DNA from: Octopus vulgaris
Lineage: Eukaryota
NCBI GenBank assembly: GCA_951406725.2
Contig: OX597817.1
Location: 8,742,001 to 8,806,000, forward strand
Reading direction: 5' to 3'
DNA: 64,000 nt
Shown here: one piece after another, positions 3,081-62,156 of the stretch
Position numbering within the stretch: the first letter of the stretch is position 1
Layout: every line of letters starts with the position of its first letter
The notes under the pieces: generated by a model
What the model saw: only the letters and a program-made list of their open reading frames with translations
What the model was told of the DNA's origin: nothing
The model's database searches: none
Program-made: the position numbers and the translations under genes

Positions 3081-3303
3081 AGCCCTTTCAGTAGTAGTTG
3101 ACTCTGAGAAACAACAACTATTGAAAAGTTTCCAAGACGCAACGAGAATTTTAGGAAAAATAAATGAGTAAATGAGTGGAAACTTTACCGGTGAGTGTGT
3201 TAACTTATAAGGCACTAAAAGCGAATGATTCTCACCAGATACAACAAAATATGCTTCAATACACGAACTCACATAAAGAATCTTGCAAACCAAATCCCAA
3301 AAC

Positions 3304-3340
<37 letters not shown>

Positions 3341-3343
<3 letters not shown>

Positions 3344-3933
3344 GTTGGAATTTACAGAAAAGCAAACAACGAAGACAGGTGTATAAACAACAAACAGGTG
3401 TATTACTTGAACGCTCGGGAAGGTGAGGGAGTCCGGATGATCCCTGTGCAAGGACGATCCGAACACGGACAGGTGTTGCAAAGAGTGACCGATAGAGCGG
3501 AAATGGTGCGAGACTGGAGCGTCATTACCGAGTCGGATGCTTCGGAGATGTTCCGCGAACCGGTCAGCCGAGCGGCGTCCCATTTGCCCGATATATAGAG
3601 AAGGGCAGAGAGAGCAGAAGATGCAGTAGATGATATTGGTAGAAATGCAGGTGAAGGAGTCGGTGATGTGATAGGATCGATGATGGGTGCCGGTGAGGAG
3701 GGTGGTGTTGAAGAGGTAAGGGCAAGTGCGGTAGCGTGGGCGGTTGCAGGGGAACGAGCCGGGTTGGGAGGTTGGGTTAGGGAAGAAGCTGTGGACCAAA
3801 AGGTCTCGTAGGTTGTGGGCTCGTTTGAAGGAGGGGAGGGGCCAGTTAGGGAAGATGTGCGAAGTGGAGGGTTCTGACTGGAGTCGCCGGAAGGCTCTGA
3901 GAATGGTGCATTGGAGAGGTAGGGTTGTGGGGT
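3341..3933 (-). mobile_element. Penelope-like element 3' fragment: GIY-YIG endonuclease plus terminal repeat
   Basis: ORF 3269-3979 contains SFPCNRPRYRTCP...FTCISTNIIYCIFCSLCPSLYIGQMGRRSADRFAEH; 3341-3434 matches the terminus at 27100-27185; flanked by (CA)n and (TA)n. Confidence 0.9.
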
Positions 3934-4371
3934 AATATATATATATACACATATATAATCGGTTCTGTGAAAACCCCAACTACCGTATTATTTGTTTATT
4001 ATTAGTTTTTCTTTGTTTATTTGTGTTTATTTGTTTAATCAATTTATCTATTCCGTTCTTGACCTTATATCTGTATCATAAATCATTATTCTTATCGTTT
4101 ACGCCCGAGATCAAACTTCACACTCCATCGTCCGGGGATCGTTAAGTTAAGTAACAAATATTGTACTGCGGTTTGATCTCATCGATTCTCCCCCCCACAC
4201 ACACACACTCATCCACCCACTCACCTATCAGCAGCAGCAGCACACAAAATTTGTGGCTCCGTCATTATGTTAGAAACCACCACCATCATCATCATTGTAA
4301 TCATCGTTGTAGTAATCGTTGGCGTCGCAGTGGTCTTCGCCATTGTCGTTATCATCGTTGTCGTCATCGTC

Positions 4372-14600: not shown

Positions 14601-16040
14601 CAAGCTGCAGAGGCTTGTCAAATGGACTGACAAACACAAATACATGTACGTTAGACACTTGAAATAAAATAAAATTGCAGAAGTTAGTCAGATGATGAAA
14701 GAAAATTGATTGATTCGTGGCGGGTATTTTTACTTTTAGTATCGATACCATTGAAAAATTTGCCACATCTAATTTCGCTGTAAATACTTCTCATGTAAAA
14801 CAATTTACTGTCCGTATTATCCTTATAAACTTTCTTGCTGCCATCAACATCAACGACAGGAACAGCAATGAACCGCAAATGAGCTAGGATCCAAAATTCG
14901 ACGCTTCTGCTGATGCTAACGTGGGAAGTGTATTCCAGTTTAGGACACTTAGTACATAACACTTATTACCCTAAAGGTAGGGTGTGATTAAAGCTAATTA
15001 GTACTCTGAAAACAAACTAACAATGATTCCACTGGCGCCTCTTCATTTAGACAAAAGAACCGAATGCGAAATAATAGGAAGGAAAATTGTTTATTTTTCA
15101 GGCAGTCTCTCAGATCAAACCTCACAACTAAATTAAATACAACTGACTGCTTAATATTTATTTAGCATTAAATAACAGTGGGAAATATTAGGGAATTATT
15201 AATTTGTAACTAAGGCAACGGAGAAAATATATCGTTGCTATAATACAAAAGTGTTGTAAGTCCAAAACGTTGCTTTTTCAGAAAACGAAAAAATTGTCTC
15301 ATCATTCCATAGCAAAACCGTTTTTCATATCTTGGTATCTGAAGCAGGTGGAGATATGATAGTTTGACCAAAAGAACCGGCTGTTGCAAGCAAAAATAAA
15401 TATTAAAAAAAAATCGCATTTGGCAAAATTTTGACATACGACAGTTTAACATAATAGCAACGATAAGTTTTCAGAACTCTATTTTAGTCATCAAAAAAAA
15501 AAAAAAAAAGAATTCCCACTGTTATTTATATCAGTGATTGTGTATAATTTACCATTTACACTGTGGTAAATTGGTCACTGGAAAAATATTTGTGATGCAT
15601 CCTTCCTCTTGACGCCCCAAAATTAAGTCTATATGGCTAATATAGGCCAGAATGAGGATGTTTTCAATGAGGCGCTAATTCCAGTATCATCGGATTTTGT
15701 ATAATGATATACTTTCAGATGAGTCTCTTTTGCATTTCCCATTTCCCTTTATTTTAGACTGTATCATTAAATAACGAGAGAGAGAGAAAGAGAGAGAGAA
15801 ATTACGTTTCCATTACATTGACATCGTATTATTTTCGGATTTTAAAATAAAATATTTATATATAATAAAATGAAAAATTAAAATAAAATATATTTATTTT
15901 CGGATTTTATAAACAAATATTTTCAATTTTTTATTGTTTTTTCTATATATAATGTTTTCCGACATTCTATCGCCTTTTATAAAACTGATTTTCTCTATTT
16001 CTCACAGTGACTGAAGCAAACTGTAATATTCCTATACATA

Positions 16041-16449
16041 TAGGCGCAGGAGTGGCTGTGTGGTAGGTAGCTTGTTTACCAACCACATGGTTCCGGGTCC
16101 AGTCCCACTGCGTGGCATCTTGGGCAAGTGTCTTCTACTATAGACTCGGGCCGACCAAAACCTTGTGAGTGGATTTGGTAGACGGAAACTGAAAGAAGCC
16201 CGTCGTATATATGTATATATATAGATATGCGTGTGTGTGTTTGTGTCTGTGTTTGTCCTCCTAGCATTGTTTGACAACCGATGCTGGTGTGTTTATGTCC
16301 CCGTTACTTAGCGGTTCGGCAAAAGAGACCGATAGAATAAGTACTGGGCTTACAAAAGAATAAGTCCCGGAGTCGAGTTGCTCGATTAAAGGCGGTGCTC
16401 CAGCATGGCCGCAGTCAAATGACTGAAACGAGTAAAAGAATAAAAGAAT
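16041..16449 (+). mobile_element. SINE family B, full length (tRNA-derived head, CORE-like CTTGGGCAAGTG, internal TA/TG microsatellite, (GTAAAA/GA)n tail)
   Basis: AGGCGCAGGAGTGGCTGTGTGGTA head, GGTCCAGTCCC B-box-like, ends GACTGAAACGAGTAAAAGAATAAAAGA; more than 12 copies in the window. Confidence 0.9.
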
Positions 16450-16609
16450 ATGTTAGGATAATACTTAACTAAAGGCGTCTAGTTTTGTATAGTTCTGTGG
16501 CACACAAACACACACACATACACATCGCAAAGAGGTAGATAGACGAGATACATATACATACATACATACATACATACATACATACATACATACTAAGTAT
16601 AAGGAAGTA

Positions 16610-18300: not shown

Positions 18301-18603
18301 ACCACTCAAATCCGTACTGTTAACCTCATACATCATAACTAGGAAACAGTCTTGCTCGAATGCGGATTGAGTCATCATACGCACAAGCTCAAACACACAT
18401 ACTTACACGCATACACACCCTTACATGTGTGTGTGAGTGTGTGTGTATGTGTGTGTGTGTGTGTATGTCGTGTGTGTGTGTCGTGTGTGTGTGTGTGTGT
18501 GTAAGTGACTGGAAGAAAAACAGACACACGTTTCATCAGTGAAATATTTTTATTTAAAATTCAAAATTTGAAAGATGACAATTGCGGGAGATTTTGTCAA
18601 CAT

Positions 18604-18649
18604 CCTGCGCAAGGATGACACGCAAATTCGTGAAGCGTTCCATATTTTT
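18604..18649 (+). pseudogene. U6: U6 snRNA 3' fragment (46 nt) fused to SINE-B
   Basis: CCTGCGCAAGGATGACACGCAAATTCGTGAAGCGTTCCATATTTTT matches the canonical metazoan U6 3' end as I recall it. Confidence 0.93.
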
Positions 18650-18656
18650 CTTTATG

Positions 18657-19055
18657 TAGGCGCAGGCGTGGCTGTGTGGTAAGAAGCTTGCTTTCCGATC
18701 ACATGGTTCTGGGTTCAGTCCCACTGCGTGGCACCTTGGGCAAGTGTCTTCTCCTTTAGCCTCGGGCCGACTAAAGGCTTGAATGGATTTGGTAGACGGA
18801 AACTGAAAGAAGCCCGTAATATGTGTGTGTGTGAGTGTGTGTGTTTTCATGTGCGTGTATCTTTGTGTCTGTGTTTGTCTCCCCTCCATCGCTTGACAAC
18901 CGATGACAACTTAGCAGTTCGCCAAAACTTACCGATAGAATAAGTACCAGACAGACTTACAAAGAATAAGTCCTGGGGACGATTTCTTCGTCTAAAAGGT
19001 GGTGCTCCAGCATGGCCGAAGTCAAATGACTGAAACAAGCAAAAGCATAAAAGAA
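18657..19055 (+). mobile_element. SINE-B, near full length, directly after the U6 fragment
   Basis: Same head, body and tail as 16041; small internal deletion near 18905. Confidence 0.9.
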
Positions 19056-19779
19056 TCCCGAAACTGAAAGGAAATTATTACAATTGATTAGTAATGTCTA
19101 ATTCATGACATGAATAAGATATGATGAAACATCAGCTGAAATATTTGTCGGCCATTTTGACTATTTATTTCGAAAGATCTACTCTATGACGTATAAATCA
19201 GAAGCATTCCAGGCATGACTATCCCGCTTTATATATATAGGCATCATATATTGAATACTACGTTTGCTAATGAGGTCTTACGTAGCATTTTCTTTCTAAA
19301 GGGTGAGGATCAGGTGTGGGTTGAGGGAAATTGTGTTGTTATGACTAGCATGTCAAACGATTCCGGAAAGTTCCTACGCTGGCTTCTAAATCTAGGAGCA
19401 AACGTGAGAATGTAATTGTAGAATTGTGCAGTAGGCAACGTAGTGAAAACGGTTGACTGAATTCAGCGATATCTTTACAGCAGATTCTTGTGTGCATCAC
19501 CCACATGAGTGAGGCGTAATATTCCTTCGCAATAAACTAGGTGTGTTTCAGCATATTACAGTCTTCGAGTATTAAGTGGTTGAGAGACACATGTTCGAGA
19601 GAACGCTTACCTTTCATGAGATTAGCATAACTAGAGAATTTTCTTTCAGGAATACAAGTCCATACCTTCCATTTCTTTCTCGAGTATTCATTACAGCTTC
19701 TTCATGTCATGATGAACGTAAAATGGTGCTGATTCAAACGATGATACTTTTTTTCAAAAATATTTTCACAGGCACCTGC

Positions 19780-20960: not shown

Positions 20961-22331
20961 TACAATCGTACTTGACCAAGTTTACATACATGACCCTGAT
21001 AACATCATGAAACTTCGAAGACAGCTCCTTGAGCAACACTCTTTGTCTGATAATCTAGAATACATGCCCAAAGACGTCGCTCAGCTCTACCGCCACGATT
21101 CATTAGATGAAAGGATGAGCCTGTATGAGCAGAAGACCATGCATGGATATGTCAGTAGAAAGCTCCGAGATGTTAGTAACATTGATCATGAAAGCAGTCT
21201 ATCATGGACCAATAGCCAAATTACTACCGCCCACTTTGAAGGGTTTGCGTTTGCAATCCAGAAACAGGAAATATCAACCAAGTACCTGATGGACAAAAGG
21301 GATAGAGATGCAGGAAAAGCGGTAAAGTATGATAACCGATGCAGACTTTGTGGAGCTAACACCGACGATATCCCTCACATCATAAGCAATTGTCTAAAAA
21401 TGTCATCACGGTAATATCTACTGATGAGACATGATGCTGCAGCTAGGACACTCTATAATGAAATCCATCGGAAGTATAACCCCGAGAACAAAGAAATAAG
21501 AACCCAAAGTATGGGAGAAGCCATAGCCACTCATAATAAATAGGAGTCCTGGTGGAATGTCCCAGTGAAGACGTCAATAAAATGCGAGCACAACAGACCT
21601 GATATAATGATTTGGGATCGAGAAGAGAAGCTGTGTACAGTAGTGGAAATTAGCTACTCAGCAGATGTTAACGTAAAGCTGAAGATCAGTGAAACAGAAT
21701 ACCTACGCTGAACTATTGAGAAATCTAGTTACTCTATCCAAATTACAAGTTTGGGTTTATACCTGTAATTATTGGGGCCATGGGATATGTAACACACTTC
21801 CTAAATACCGGTCTTGGAAAATTAGGCTTTTCACAACGAGGAAGGAGAAGGCTAATTCGGAGACTACAGATCCAATCCATCACTGAAACTGTAAAAATCT
21901 GTAAAAATTTCCAGGCATTTAAATATATATCAGCATGTCTAGATATGTAGCTATATGCATGAGAATATATACATAAAACAACACATACATATACATACAA
22001 TCCATCTCTAGAGCTGTAAAAATCTGTAAAACTCTCCAGAAGTTTATCATTTAAATGCATATGAGCATGTCTAGATATGTAACTATATGCATGAGAATAC
22101 ATGGATAAAACATACATATCTGCATATTCATACATATATACATACATGCATGCATGCATGCATACATACATACATACATACATACATACATACATACATA
22201 CATACATACATACATACATACATACATACATACATACCCTGTTGTTGATGTTGAAATTCCATTGAAGGAACATTGAATCTAGATTAGAAATTGGTTCTTT
22301 CTCTATTGGCAAAAAATCTTGAAATAAACTG
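20961..22331 (+). mobile_element. R4/Dong-like non-LTR retrotransposon, 5'-truncated (CCHC knuckle, restriction-like endonuclease, 3' UTR)
   Basis: EGFAFAIQKQEISTK...CRLCGANTDDIPHIISNC...RHD...HNRPDIMIWD...VVEIS; stops and frameshifts; abuts (CATA)n; 3' UTR has an about 120-bp duplication and (CATA)n. Confidence 0.85.
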
Positions 22332-25710: not shown

Positions 25711-25811
25711 GGCCAACTACAACTTTTCTAGACGATCCTCATTTTAAGTCTTTGGAAACCAATTAGTTTGGTGCCGGTGTAGTATGTGAGCTACATACAT
25801 GTTTCTAGTAT

Positions 25812-26250
25812 AGCTGAGTGGCTTTGTGGTAAGTAGCTTGCTTAGGAACCACATGGTTCCAGGTTCAGTCCCACTGCGTGGTACCTTGGGCAAGTGACTT
25901 CTACTATAGCCCCGGGTCGACCAAAGTCTTGTGAGTGGATTTGGTAGACGGAAACTGCAAGAAGCCCATCGTATGTGTATATATATATATGCATGAGTGT
26001 GTATAAGTTATATATATATGCATGAGTGTGTATAAGTTTGTGTGACTGTGTTTGTCCCCCCAACATCGCTGGACAACCGATGCTGGTGTGTTTACGTCCC
26101 CGTCACCTAGCGGTTCGGCAAAAGAGACCGATAGAATAAGTACTAGGCTTACAAAGAATAAGTCCTGGGGTCGATTCGCTCGACGACTAAAGGCGGTGCT
26201 CCAGCATGGCCACAATCAAATGACTGAAACAAGTAAAAGAGTAAAAGAGT
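25812..26250 (+). mobile_element. SINE-B, full length
   Basis: Head, CORE-like segment, body and AGTAAAAG tail as in 16041. Confidence 0.9.
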
Positions 26251-26279
26251 ATCTATATTAGTTCAAATGATATATAGTT

Positions 26280-33163: not shown

Positions 33164-33781
33164 GGAATATTTTCCGTTTGACCGGCAGATTTTTAAAATA
33201 ATTTTTTGTAACTAAACACTTTTAAACTTCGTATACTGGTAGAACGTGTCACATAATACATCTTTTTCTCTTGGCGTTCTTGAGAAAATGTGACACATTC
33301 TACCAGTATACGAGGTTTAAAAGTGTTTACTCTTTACTCTTTTACTCTTTTACTTGTTTCAGTCATTTTACTGTGGCCATGCTGGAGCACCACCTTTTAG
33401 TCGAGCAAATCGACCCCGGGACTTATTCTTTGTAAGCCCAGTACTTATTCTATCGGTCTCTTTTGCCGAAACGCTAACCCAGCATCGGTTGTCAAGCAAT
33501 GCTAGTGGAACAAACACAGACACACAAACACACACACACATACATACATATATATATATATACATATATACGACAGGCTTCTTTCGGTTTCCGTCTACCA
33601 AATCCACTCACAAGGCATTGGTCGGCCCGGGGCTATAGCAGAAGACACTTGCCCAAGATGCCACGCAGTGGGACTGAACCCGGAACCATGTGGTTGGTTA
33701 GCAAGCTACTTACCACACAGCCACTCCTGTTTAGTTACAAAAAATTATTTTTTAAATTTGCCGGTCAAAGTGAAAAGATCC
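33164..33781. mobile_element. Palindromic MITE (GG...CC ends) interrupted by SINE-B
   Basis: TTTGACCGGCAGATT... / ...AATTTGCCGGTCAAA inverted arms; candidate TSD GACTTCT/GAGTTCT; same family as 55020-55212. Confidence 0.8.
33330..33727 (-). mobile_element. SINE-B inserted in the MITE
   Basis: Reverse family consensus; TGTTTA direct repeats at 33324-33329 and 33728-33733. Confidence 0.9.
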
Positions 33782-34328
33782 GAGTTCTGAGTTCAAACTG
33801 TATCGAAGTTAACTATACACCACCACGCCCCACTCCATTTAGAGTCGATAGAATAAAGCACTAGTCAAGTACTGAGGCGGATGAATCGACTTACCCCTCC
33901 CCTCAAAATTACTGGTCCCGAATCGAGATTCGGAAGAACTATTGGATTCTGTCAATTTGAAAAACCGAGAGTTGGATATTATATTCATTCGGAAATTGCG
34001 TTTACGAAAACATTTAAAACATGAATTTGCCATCGCAGCAGTATTTGATGGTGTCTAGCGAATTAAGACCTTAATCCGATTCCGATGTTCGACTTATGCC
34101 GTTCCACTCAGCTGAATATCTCTGTAAATAAGTTGCAAGCTTGCAGTAAAGCTGTTGTTGTAGAGTACGATAAGAAACTAAAACAAAAGGACAAATCTAA
34201 GAAAACGCAACCACAAAAAATACCACCACCACCACAACAACAACAATTAGAACAAGAAAACACACAATTGTGAACTTTCTTTAATTCCTATCCTTCAGAA
34301 TGATGATATTATAGGAATGACAAGACTG

Positions 34329-35265
34329 CGAGATGGCAGAAACGTTAGCACACCGGGCGAAATGCTTAGCGATATTTCGTCTGCCGTTACGTTCTGAGTT
34401 CAAATTCCGCCGAGGTCGACTTTGGCTTTCATCTTTTCGGGGTCGATTAAACAAGTACCAGTTACGCACTGGGGTCGATATAATCGACTTAATCCGTTTG
34501 TCTGTCTTTGTTTGTCCCCTCTGTGTGTAGCCCCTTGTGGGTAGTAAAGAAATAGATATTTCACCCGTTGGTATGTTCTGAGTTCAAATTCCGCTGAGGA
34601 CTTTGCCTTTCATCTTTTCGGGGTCGATTAAACAAATACCAGTTACGAACTGGGGTCGATATAATCGACTTAATCCGTTTGTCTGTCCTTGTTTGTCCCC
34701 TCTGTGTTTAGCCTCTTATGGGTAGTAAAGAAATAGATATTTCACCCGTTGGTATGTTCTGAGTTCAAATTCCGCTGAGGACTTTGCCTTTCATCTTTTC
34801 TGGGTCGATTAAATAAGTACCAGTTACGCACTTGGGTCGATATAATCGACTTAATCCGTTTGTCTGTCCTTGTTTGTCCTCGCTGTGTGTAGCCCCTTGT
34901 GGGTAGTAAAGAAATAGATATTTCACCCGTTGGTATGTTCTGAGTTCAAATTCCGCTGAGGACTTTGTCTTTCATCTTTTCGGGGTCGATTAAACAAGTA
35001 CCAGTTACGCACTGGGGTCGATATAATCGACTTAATCTGTTTGTCTGTCCTTGTTTGTCCTTTCTGTGTTTAGCCCCTTGTGGGTAGTAAAGAAATAGGT
35101 ATTTCGTTTGTCTTTATGTTCTGAGCTCAAATTCCACCGAGGTCGACTTTGCCATTCATCCTTTCGGGGTGGATAAATTAAGTGCCAGTTGCGTACTGGG
35201 GTTGATCTAATCGATTGGCCCCTCCCCCAAAATTTCGGGCCTTGTGTCTAGAGTAGGAAAGGATA
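34329..35265 (+). mobile_element. SINE-A tandem multimer: one head plus five about 180-bp bodies
   Basis: AAAGAAATAG(A/G)TATTTC junction recurs at about 34547, 34727, 34909 and 35088; the last unit has the short CCCTCCCCCAAAATTTCGGGCC tail. Confidence 0.9.
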
Positions 35266-35275
35266 TTATAGATTC

Positions 35276-35376
35276 CTTCGGCTATACATATTCTAAAATT
35301 GGAACGATACGGAGAAGATAAGCATGGCCCCTGCGCAAGGATGATATGCAAATTCGTGAAGCGTTCCATATTTTTT
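35276..35376 (+). pseudogene. U6: Near-full-length U6 snRNA retrocopy fused to SINE-B
   Basis: CTTCGGC...CTAAAATTGGAACGATACGGAGAAGATAAGCATGGCCCCTGCGCAAGGATGATATGCAAATTCGTGAAGCGTTCCATATTTTTT; ACAGAGA box mutated to ACGGAGA; upstream is a SINE tail, not a type-3 Pol III promoter. Confidence 0.95.
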
Positions 35377-35377
35377 A

Positions 35378-35770
35378 TAGGCGCAGGAGTGGCTATATGG
35401 TAAGTAGTTTGCTTACCAACCACATGGTTCCGGGTTCATTCCCACTGCGTGGCACCTTGGACAAGTGTCTTCTACTAAAGACTCGGGCCGACCAAAGACT
35501 TGTGAGTGGATTTGGTAAACGGAAACTGAAAGAAACCCGTCGTATATATGTATATTTGTGTATATGTTTGTGTCTTTGTGTTTGTCCCCCCACCCCAACA
35601 TCGCTTGACAACCGATGTTGGTGTGTTTGTATCCCCGTAACTTAGCGGTTCGGCAAAAGAGACCGATAGAATAAGTACTAGGCTTACAAAAAAAAAAATA
35701 AGTCCGGTGCTCTAGCATGACCACAGCCAAATGACTGAAGCAAGTAAAAGAGAGAGAGAGAGTAAAGAGA
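35378..35770 (+). mobile_element. SINE-B, full length, directly after U6
   Basis: TAGGCGCAGGAGTGGCT head through GACTGAAGCAAGTAAAAG tail. Confidence 0.9.
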
Positions 35771-36095
35771 ATGACAGTCGGGTTGAATGAAGGAGTATTG
35801 CTCTATGATGGTTTCTGAACTATTTCTTGTTTACGAGCTTATGACGTAGAGAGAGAGAAGCTGGATTCTTTGTAACAGCCATCTTACTCTACTGATATTC
35901 ATTTCCATATCAATTACTTCTGCATCAACTGCAGCTATTATTACATCCATCTTATATCCTGCTATCGAAGTTGCATTCGAAGTGGGTTTTTTTTTTTTTT
36001 TTTCATTTTACATTTCTTTCATTTTTAGGTCACGCAGAAAGAAGCATTATCTATGTGTATACAGTAGGGAATTCTCCAATCCAACCGTTGCATCA

Positions 36096-44689: not shown

Positions 44690-45060
44690 ACTGGGTATGG
44701 GGCTATGATATCTACTAAGTATATTTCCTATTTAGTATTGGGGAGGTTTCATTTATGAGGACGTACTCCTGTATTTGTCTGAGTGTTGCGTCCTTTGGGT
44801 GCTTGGATAAAATGCAGAGGTCAAGTTGACCCAGGTTGCCTCCATGTTTATCCTTGGTATGTATGGAGGATTTTTGTTGTTGTTGTCATATTGTCCCCAA
44901 TGTTCATTTAGTCGTTCCGCAATGCTCCTATGTGTCTCCCCTATGTATGTCATTATACGTAATGATACCAGTGGTACCTCCCCTAGATATAGAAACTAAA
45001 ACTGGAATAGGATACAAAGAACTTGTGACAAAGCAAGCAGTGAGAACACGTTGTATAAAA
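44690..45060 (-). mobile_element. PLE GIY-YIG fragment
   Basis: MTYIGETHRSIAERLNEH in ORF 44753-44953. Confidence 0.7.
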
Positions 45061-61492: not shown

Positions 61493-62156
61493 ATTATGTT
61501 GTTCACAAAAATTATGGCTGATTTCAGAAACAATTTTATTCTGGAAAAATTAACAATAGAAATGTTTTGATTAGTCAAACTATGAGATGTTGACACATAT
61601 GCATCTCTGGCATCGATCAACGAGATTATTTATGCCTCGTTGATAAAAACTTATTGACTTTGATGCTAAGAAATCTTTGGAAGCTGATTCCACCTCTGGT
61701 TTGGGCATGAAAGTTTTATCACTTAAAGACGTGTTTAAATGATTAAAAATTGGTAGTCAGTAGGTGAAAGATCAGGAGAATATGGAGGATATCGTAAAAT
61801 CTCGTATCCCGAGTCTGTGGGTTTCTACAACGTCATTCTTGCAACATGTGGCTTTGCATTATTGTAGAGCAGAATTGGGCCTCGCCGATTCACCAATGCA
61901 GGTCTCATTTTTTGCAAGTAAGCACGCATTTCAGCGAGTTGATCGCAGTAAACCTCTGCTGTAATGCTCTGATTGGCTTCCAAAAAGCTGTAATTGACAA
62001 CACTAATTGCAGTCCACCAGACAGTCACCATAATCTTTTGCTGATGCAACATTGGCTGACCGTTTACAGTTATCATAAAGGATCTACTTTTCGTCACAAG
62101 TGACTATTCGGTCTAGAAAAGGATCATTAGTGTTTCGCAGAAAGAGCTTGAAACCA

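Follow-up and report, generated by a model that had tools for sequence, protein, structure and literature searches.

A 3' fragment of U6 snRNA joined to a complete SINE in Octopus vulgaris, and how a single reverse transcription may have joined them

The locus described here raises a simple question: how did the 3' end of a U6 snRNA come to lie just upstream of a complete SINE? We addressed it within a window of 64,000 nucleotides of the Octopus vulgaris genome, meaning the whole stretch of DNA that was analysed. On the + strand the order of parts is a unique flank, 46 nt of U6, a short spacer and a copy of a repeat that we call SINE-B, with U6 and SINE in the same orientation.

The U6 piece (18604..18649, +) is the last 46 nt of U6 and ends in 5 T. 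An earlier sequence-only reading had identified it as such, and this was borne out both by alignment to a longer U6 copy in the window (44 of 46 positions identical to 35330-35375, E 1.4e-16) and by the Rfam U6 model (43.4 bits, E 2.2e-9, just below the gathering score of 44). By a manual count from the alignment to the companion copy, the piece covers approximately Rfam model positions 60-105. The two mismatches between the copies lie where this one reads GACACGC and the one at 35.3 kb reads GATATGC, a difference which that reading had described correctly, and the Rfam consensus agrees with the copy at 18604. The ACAGAGA box and the AGC triad are needed for U6 function, and neither is present in 18604-18649, where the 5' 59 model positions, including the U6 5' hairpin, are absent. 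Measured against a functional U6, which would be full length with 5' hairpin and ACAGAGA box, the piece has neither the length nor these two elements; lacking box and triad it cannot work as U6, and it is a non-functional U6 retrocopy.

Could it instead be the better-preserved end of a decayed full-length U6? The Rfam alignment can be stretched to 18542 through a resemblance at 18559-18576, which we judged to be due to chance and rejected, its score being equalled in 2.8% of 4967 random windows, 5.3% of 1974 AT-matched windows and 8.9% of 5000 shuffles. Since this segment is out of register and the unchanged 46-mer beside it is far less diverged, we read the U6 as truly truncated at about model position 60. 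Matches to miRNAs at 18375-18548 were also set aside, as they are (CA)/(TG) repeats. Sliding local alignment of the longer copy found no third U6 piece in the 64-kb window (score 82 at 18604, at most 29 elsewhere), and a 17-nt motif from the U6 3' end has 2 matches in the window at up to 3 mismatches.

The spacer, CTTTATGT (18650..18657, +), is 8 nt long, or 7 nt if its last T is assigned to the SINE; a T precedes AGGCGC in 4/4 intact SINE-B starts, and both lengths are defensible. The 7-nt linker reported earlier is the same spacer with that T counted on the SINE side, and it becomes 8 nt if the SINE starts at AGGCGC. It represents either untemplated bases or the 5' leader of the source SINE transcript. 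The full-length SINE-B follows on the + strand, from the AGGCGC start to the end of the tail (18658-19056), and begins at the same base as the free copies at 16042 and 44116. It consists of a head and body with intact 5' start (18658..18820), in which A-box-like and B-box-like motifs can be seen by eye, an internal (TG)/(TA) microsatellite (18821..18880) and a tail (18881..19056) made of two short predicted hairpins and then two AAAAG(C/A)AT-type units. The extent previously given for the chimera, 18604..19055, was thus right at its start and one base short at its end. ARAGORN found no tRNA in the SINE-B head, nor did Rfam at E up to 10 (head of the 16042 copy), and a 27-nt SINE-B motif had 0 matches in a bacterial and archaeal genome collection. 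We take SINE-B to resemble octopus SINEs and its central motif to be CORE-like. At 18900-18960 (+) the present copy is short of about 19 nt of tail and carries a 4-nt duplication, and a similar, shifted deletion is seen in the free copy at 33734.

A companion chimera lies 17 kb away (35266..35773, +). It consists of a near-full U6 (35266-35375; 98.3 bits in Rfam) ending in 6 T, a 2-nt spacer and a SINE-B from 35379. We aligned 14 SINE-B copies taken from BLAST matches, a few further short fragments being left out; 7 of them have a head, 4 an intact start, and 12 are without U6. Two of the four intact starts carry U6, and both U6 pieces (2/2) end at the natural U6 3' end, on the same strand as the SINE and 2 and 8 nt before its start. 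For a U6 end placed at random, the probability of lying on the same strand and no more than 10 nt ahead of one of the 7 heads is 6e-4, and the linkage of U6 to the SINE is not a matter of chance. The 5' flank of the free SINE-B at 16042 (16026-16041, +) has a 10-nt TA-rich word in common with U6 35282-35291, probably by chance.

The surroundings of the companion are themselves repetitive. It starts directly on the ATT-type tail of a second SINE family (34326-35270, +), in which an internal unit of about 170 bp is tandemly repeated several times. Elsewhere, 4 of 14 matches to this second tail (5197, 9316 and 9767 on +; 42414 on -) are followed within about 35 nt by what appears by eye to be a head of the same family, an arrangement that could reflect either insertion into tails or template jumping.

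The two chimeras have separate origins, and their SINE lineages are distinct. Over head, body and tail, their SINE parts differ at 49/292 columns and have 0 derived (non-consensus) states in common, while 6 derived states are common to the SINE part at 18658 and free copy 27610; columns of the microsatellite and of the ends, where 4 states are common to both chimeric SINE parts, were excluded as unreliable. In a tree of 12 SINE-B copies (the two shortest fragments dropped, the microsatellite removed; n=2 chimeras), the chimeras were united in 0% of 200 bootstrap trees, and the AU test on a single clade gave p=0.022; the tree is otherwise poorly resolved, with no starred branch. The spacers differ in length (8 nt at 18604, 2 nt at 35.3 kb), and the T runs between U6 and SINE count 5 and 6, respectively. 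The flanks of the two chimeras show no match to each other, just as the sequence-only reading had said, and its view that these are independent insertions agrees with the 0/292 common derived states, the AU result and the different spacers. It had also suggested that a common linker would support a master element; the spacers of 8 and 2 nt and the lack of a clade disfavour a single master. Taken together, the absence of common derived bases, the rejected clade, the different spacers and the intervening T runs make one master element unlikely.

If U6 and SINE arrived as a unit, a target-site duplication might be expected to enclose both. A search anchored at the junctions found a candidate, ATCC, at 18602..18605 (+) on the left and 19055..19058 (+) on the right, so the earlier statement that there is no convincing duplication was too strong, this 4-bp word lying exactly at both junctions. 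The U6 piece begins with the final CC of the left ATCC, which may represent a microhomology, and the right ATCC overlaps the tail by 2 nt, just as the duplication does at the free copy 16042-16449. With the left boundary set at the start of the SINE the same search gave 0 bp, and with it set at the start of the spacer 2 bp. A duplication of at least 4 bp has a chance probability of 0.035, 0.059 or 0.168 under three nulls (20000 draws), so that ATCC, a weak candidate that is not significant in one of the three, is suggestive of a single insertion of U6 plus SINE. Duplications of at least 5 bp at this locus are limited to words 26-40 nt from the left junction. The free SINE-B copies at 16038-16452, 25807-26252 and 33324-33733 (3/3, the boundaries of two being set after inspection, with 44116, which has no tail, and 27610, which lies in microsatellites, left out) have duplications of 4-6 bp that overlap the tail end, a size range that includes the 4 bp of ATCC. 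This overlap with the last tail bases suggests priming by microhomology in the free copies. For the companion chimera, three choices of boundary gave a duplication of only 0-1 bp.

The relative age of the parts offers a further view of their history. At the 18604 locus, U6 shows 0/46 changes versus 18 private changes in 315 columns of the SINE, a difference that is not significant (Fisher 0.145); against the majority consensus, 13/155 positions of the SINE head are changed (p 0.04), a count that includes lineage differences. There is thus a mild and unexplained lean towards a younger U6 part. In the companion, U6 has 4 changes at conserved positions (by eye) and the SINE 12/314 private ones, and the two appear similarly aged.

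What process, then, could have produced such a structure? One target-primed reverse transcription running from the SINE tail to inside U6 accounts for all of its parts, and we consider this likely, summing over the readings that involve it. More specifically, we would give about even chances to a chimeric retropseudogene made in one such reaction with an end-to-end jump from SINE RNA to U6, a case built on the anatomy and orientation of the parts, on the separate SINE lineages and, weakly, on the duplication. The enzyme of a LINE would nick the target and prime on the tail of a SINE RNA, and its reverse transcriptase would copy that RNA up to the 5' end, where a few extra bases would be added or copied. 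From there it would jump, end to end, to a U6 RNA, entering at the oligo-U 3' terminus, and synthesis would stop 46 nt in, within the U6 internal stem-loop. The cDNA would finally be joined to the left flank, probably via a 2-nt CC match, leaving the 4-bp duplication. The SINE carries its promoter internally, downstream of the T run, so the U6 piece should not travel with later copies, and the locus is almost certainly inert.

The sequence-only reading had explained the truncation by incomplete target-primed reverse transcription of one U6-plus-SINE RNA. The first half of this stands, as a single reverse transcription stopped inside U6 is the most likely course, with ATCC around U6 and SINE together. 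The second half, a prior single RNA, fares less well: a jump between two RNAs and one pre-joined U6-plus-SINE RNA would leave identical DNA, and a jump better explains why both junctions lie at the very 5' end of the SINE. Biochemical work on the R2 reverse transcriptase lends this some plausibility, since in vitro the enzyme is described as jumping between templates after 1-2 untemplated bases, mostly A (PMC8857657). Such an overhang would presumably pair with the U tail of U6. On the other hand, overhangs of 3 or more A were non-productive in that system, the 8-nt spacer is longer than the additions of 1-2 nt with which jumping works best in vitro, and the authors doubt a physiological role for jumping (PMC8857657). 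The case also comprises two events only, and the companion chimera is without a duplication.

The LINE that would have supplied the enzyme should end like the SINE-B tail, and no such partner end was found in the window, in which Pfam gave 3 matches on 106 low-repeat frames (105 of 193 passed a complexity filter that mostly omitted frames inside SINEs, and two were added by hand, with 106 taken as the number scanned). The LINE sequence that we did see, at 20965-21411 (+), is what remains of a C terminus; it contains a zinc-knuckle motif (Pfam zf-RVT, E 0.0017, short of the curated threshold) and is presumably R4/Dong-like. It matched 2 proteins among 115 candidates, the best being LOC106878562 of Octopus bimaculoides (75% identity, E 2e-63). 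The window further contains a mariner-type transposase fragment (61828-62103, -; Pfam Transposase_1, E 8e-15) and GIY-YIG endonuclease-like remnants at 44756-44995 (-; weak in Pfam, E 0.009) and 3272-3979 (-; by eye), which probably belong to Penelope elements.

The rival that deserves most space, although we think it rather unlikely, is that RtcB joins U6, through a putative 2',3'-cyclic phosphate, to a SINE RNA cut just upstream of its structured head, with retrotransposition and 5' truncation to follow; this would amount to the one U6-plus-SINE RNA of the sequence-only reading, made anew each time. Ligation is the demonstrated route for U6/L1 chimeras in human cells, whose junctions are reported to end in 4-6 T (PMC6789731), compared with 5 and 6 here. 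It also explains the choice of U6. The spacers close with AT and GT, as do the flanks of free copies, and so could have been carried along from upstream of the source loci. However, a primary Pol III transcript, as of a SINE, should carry a 5'-triphosphate, and RtcB ligation requires a 5'-OH on the SINE RNA. With a 5'-triphosphate partner the reaction is described as failing (0/26 full-length joins; PMC6789731). Moreover, the human ligation partners are described in the same source as variably 5'-truncated with no preferred site (PMC6789731), while here the SINE begins 2-8 nt after the junction in both chimeras, so that ligation would require each SINE RNA to have been cut shortly before its head.

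Three further explanations carry less weight. Master sources, whether a U6-headed SINE family on the pattern of SINEU or a U6 gene whose transcripts read through into a SINE downstream, would account for two cases of identical architecture in 64 kb, and SINEU shows that snRNA-headed families exist (PMC4494074). We nevertheless find them quite improbable, given that there is no common derived base, that the clade is rejected, that the spacers differ and that many free SINE-B copies have the same tail; a variant with several masters, one per subfamily, may also be conceived. T runs act as Pol III terminators, and runs of 5 and 6 stand between U6 and SINE, which again speaks against masters. Two sequential insertions, with U6 cDNA primed at a T-rich site upstream of an older SINE or a SINE landing behind a U6 retrocopy, would fit the seemingly lower divergence of U6 (0/46 vs 18/315, p 0.07-0.15), and Doucet et al. 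read in this way one U6atac/Alu chimera that has an additional base and lacks a duplication (PMC4476161). Yet such a coincidence, with a chance of 6e-4 each, would be needed twice, the duplication around the SINE alone is 0 bp, the window holds no free U6 piece, and in the companion U6 and SINE are similarly aged; we consider this very unlikely. Lastly, a break at the SINE 5' end (18658) might have been repaired from the chimera 17 kb off, importing 46 nt of U6. Such local copying would give two rare structures near each other without a high genome-wide rate, but the SINEs already differ at columns 10, 27, 37, 40 and 42, and column 27 matches another lineage, so the common tract would be very short. 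In addition, the spacer would need about 3 changes in 12 nt beside an unchanged U6, and no duplication is predicted, all of which leaves this explanation highly improbable.

How does the octopus locus compare with known chimeras? It fits the broad class of U6/retroelement chimeras of Doucet et al. (2015), who describe U6 partnered with L2 or Mon-1 in platypus, with AnolisSINE2 in the Anolis lizard and with RTESINE1 in opossum; the 5' part of U6 is missing in the opossum case and from nearly all the U6-L2 chimeras of platypus (PMC4476161). As there, a U6 3' end with a T tract lies upstream of a retroelement in the same orientation, here with 5 T, 8 nt and a SINE; the octopus case differs in its mollusc host and in having a complete SINE preceded by a spacer, the L2 partners in platypus being described as short. 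For SINE partners, junction detail is absent from PMC4476161 and from the supplementary material searched. Duplications of 1-9 bp are given for 72.5% of 40 platypus cases, with none obvious in opossum, and those 40 chimeras come from about 2 Gb under a strict identity filter, against which the local octopus density is far higher (PMC4476161).

The mammalian U6/L1 and U6/Alu retrogenes, of which the U6/Alu events are called very rare (PMC4476161), are alike in that U6 ends in 4-6 T and is joined in the same orientation in one insertion (PMC6789731; PMC11838501; PMC2104539). In the canonical L1-type structure described in PMC2104539, U6 is full length and is joined directly to a partner that lacks its 5' part, and the listed examples have duplications of about 14-20 bp; the 18604 locus departs from three of these features, with 46 of about 105 U6 positions, an intact SINE start and a spacer of 7-8 nt. 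SINEU likewise has an snRNA-derived 5' end on a short retroposon, and recurrent 5' additions by template switch were proposed for it (PMC4494074). In contrast to the octopus chimeras, its heads derive from U1/U2, it has master copies and, in the available sections, no free partner with the same tail (Kojima 2015, PMC4494074). The octopus chimeras have a U6 head, their SINE is mostly free (12/14 without U6) and they form no clade (n=2), and thus they are not members of a SINEU-like family. Among octopus repeats, the tRNA-derived SINEs OK, OR1 and OR2 were described by Ohshima and Okada (1994; as cited in PMC4758252 and PMC4824008), the latter two sources listing OR2 or OR1 as CORE-SINEs. SINE-B is also an abundant short repeat, and its relation to OK/OR1/OR2 is putative, with A and B boxes seen by eye only. 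Our literature search, which covers few subscription papers or repeat databases, found no U6-SINE chimeras in invertebrates, and the available part of PMC9795677 has nothing on SINEs or U6. What appears to be new is therefore the mollusc host, the complete SINE and spacer in 2/2 cases, and the occurrence of two independent cases 17 kb apart.

The value of the locus lies in its being a record of mechanism. The unusual points are the intact SINE, the spacer and the local density, with U6 at 2/4 intact SINE starts. Whether U6 chimeras form by jumping or by ligation is settled only for human L1, and the two predict different junctions where a complete Pol III SINE is joined by its 5' end. Two cases 17 kb apart hint at an unusually frequent way of making U6-SINE fusions. 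Two chimeras in 64 kb correspond to a 95% range of one per 9-264 kb, which becomes one per 11 kb-2.5 Mb when the first copy is not counted, and the window may be unrepresentative in this respect. Should the density prove a local accident, the locus would add one example to a known class. If it holds genome-wide, octopus would offer thousands of junctions on which jumping could be tested against ligation, the phenomenon would be extended to invertebrates, and counts of U6 genes in annotations would be inflated. A bolder conjecture, which for now seems to us doubtful, is that octopus genomes hold thousands of independent insertions of U6 plus full-length SINE, and that their LINE enzyme routinely leaves the SINE RNA at its 5' end and jumps to U6. 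If true, this would constitute a large natural germ-line record of end-to-end template jumping, distinct from the mammalian RtcB route, and a visible intermediate on the way to snRNA-headed SINEs.
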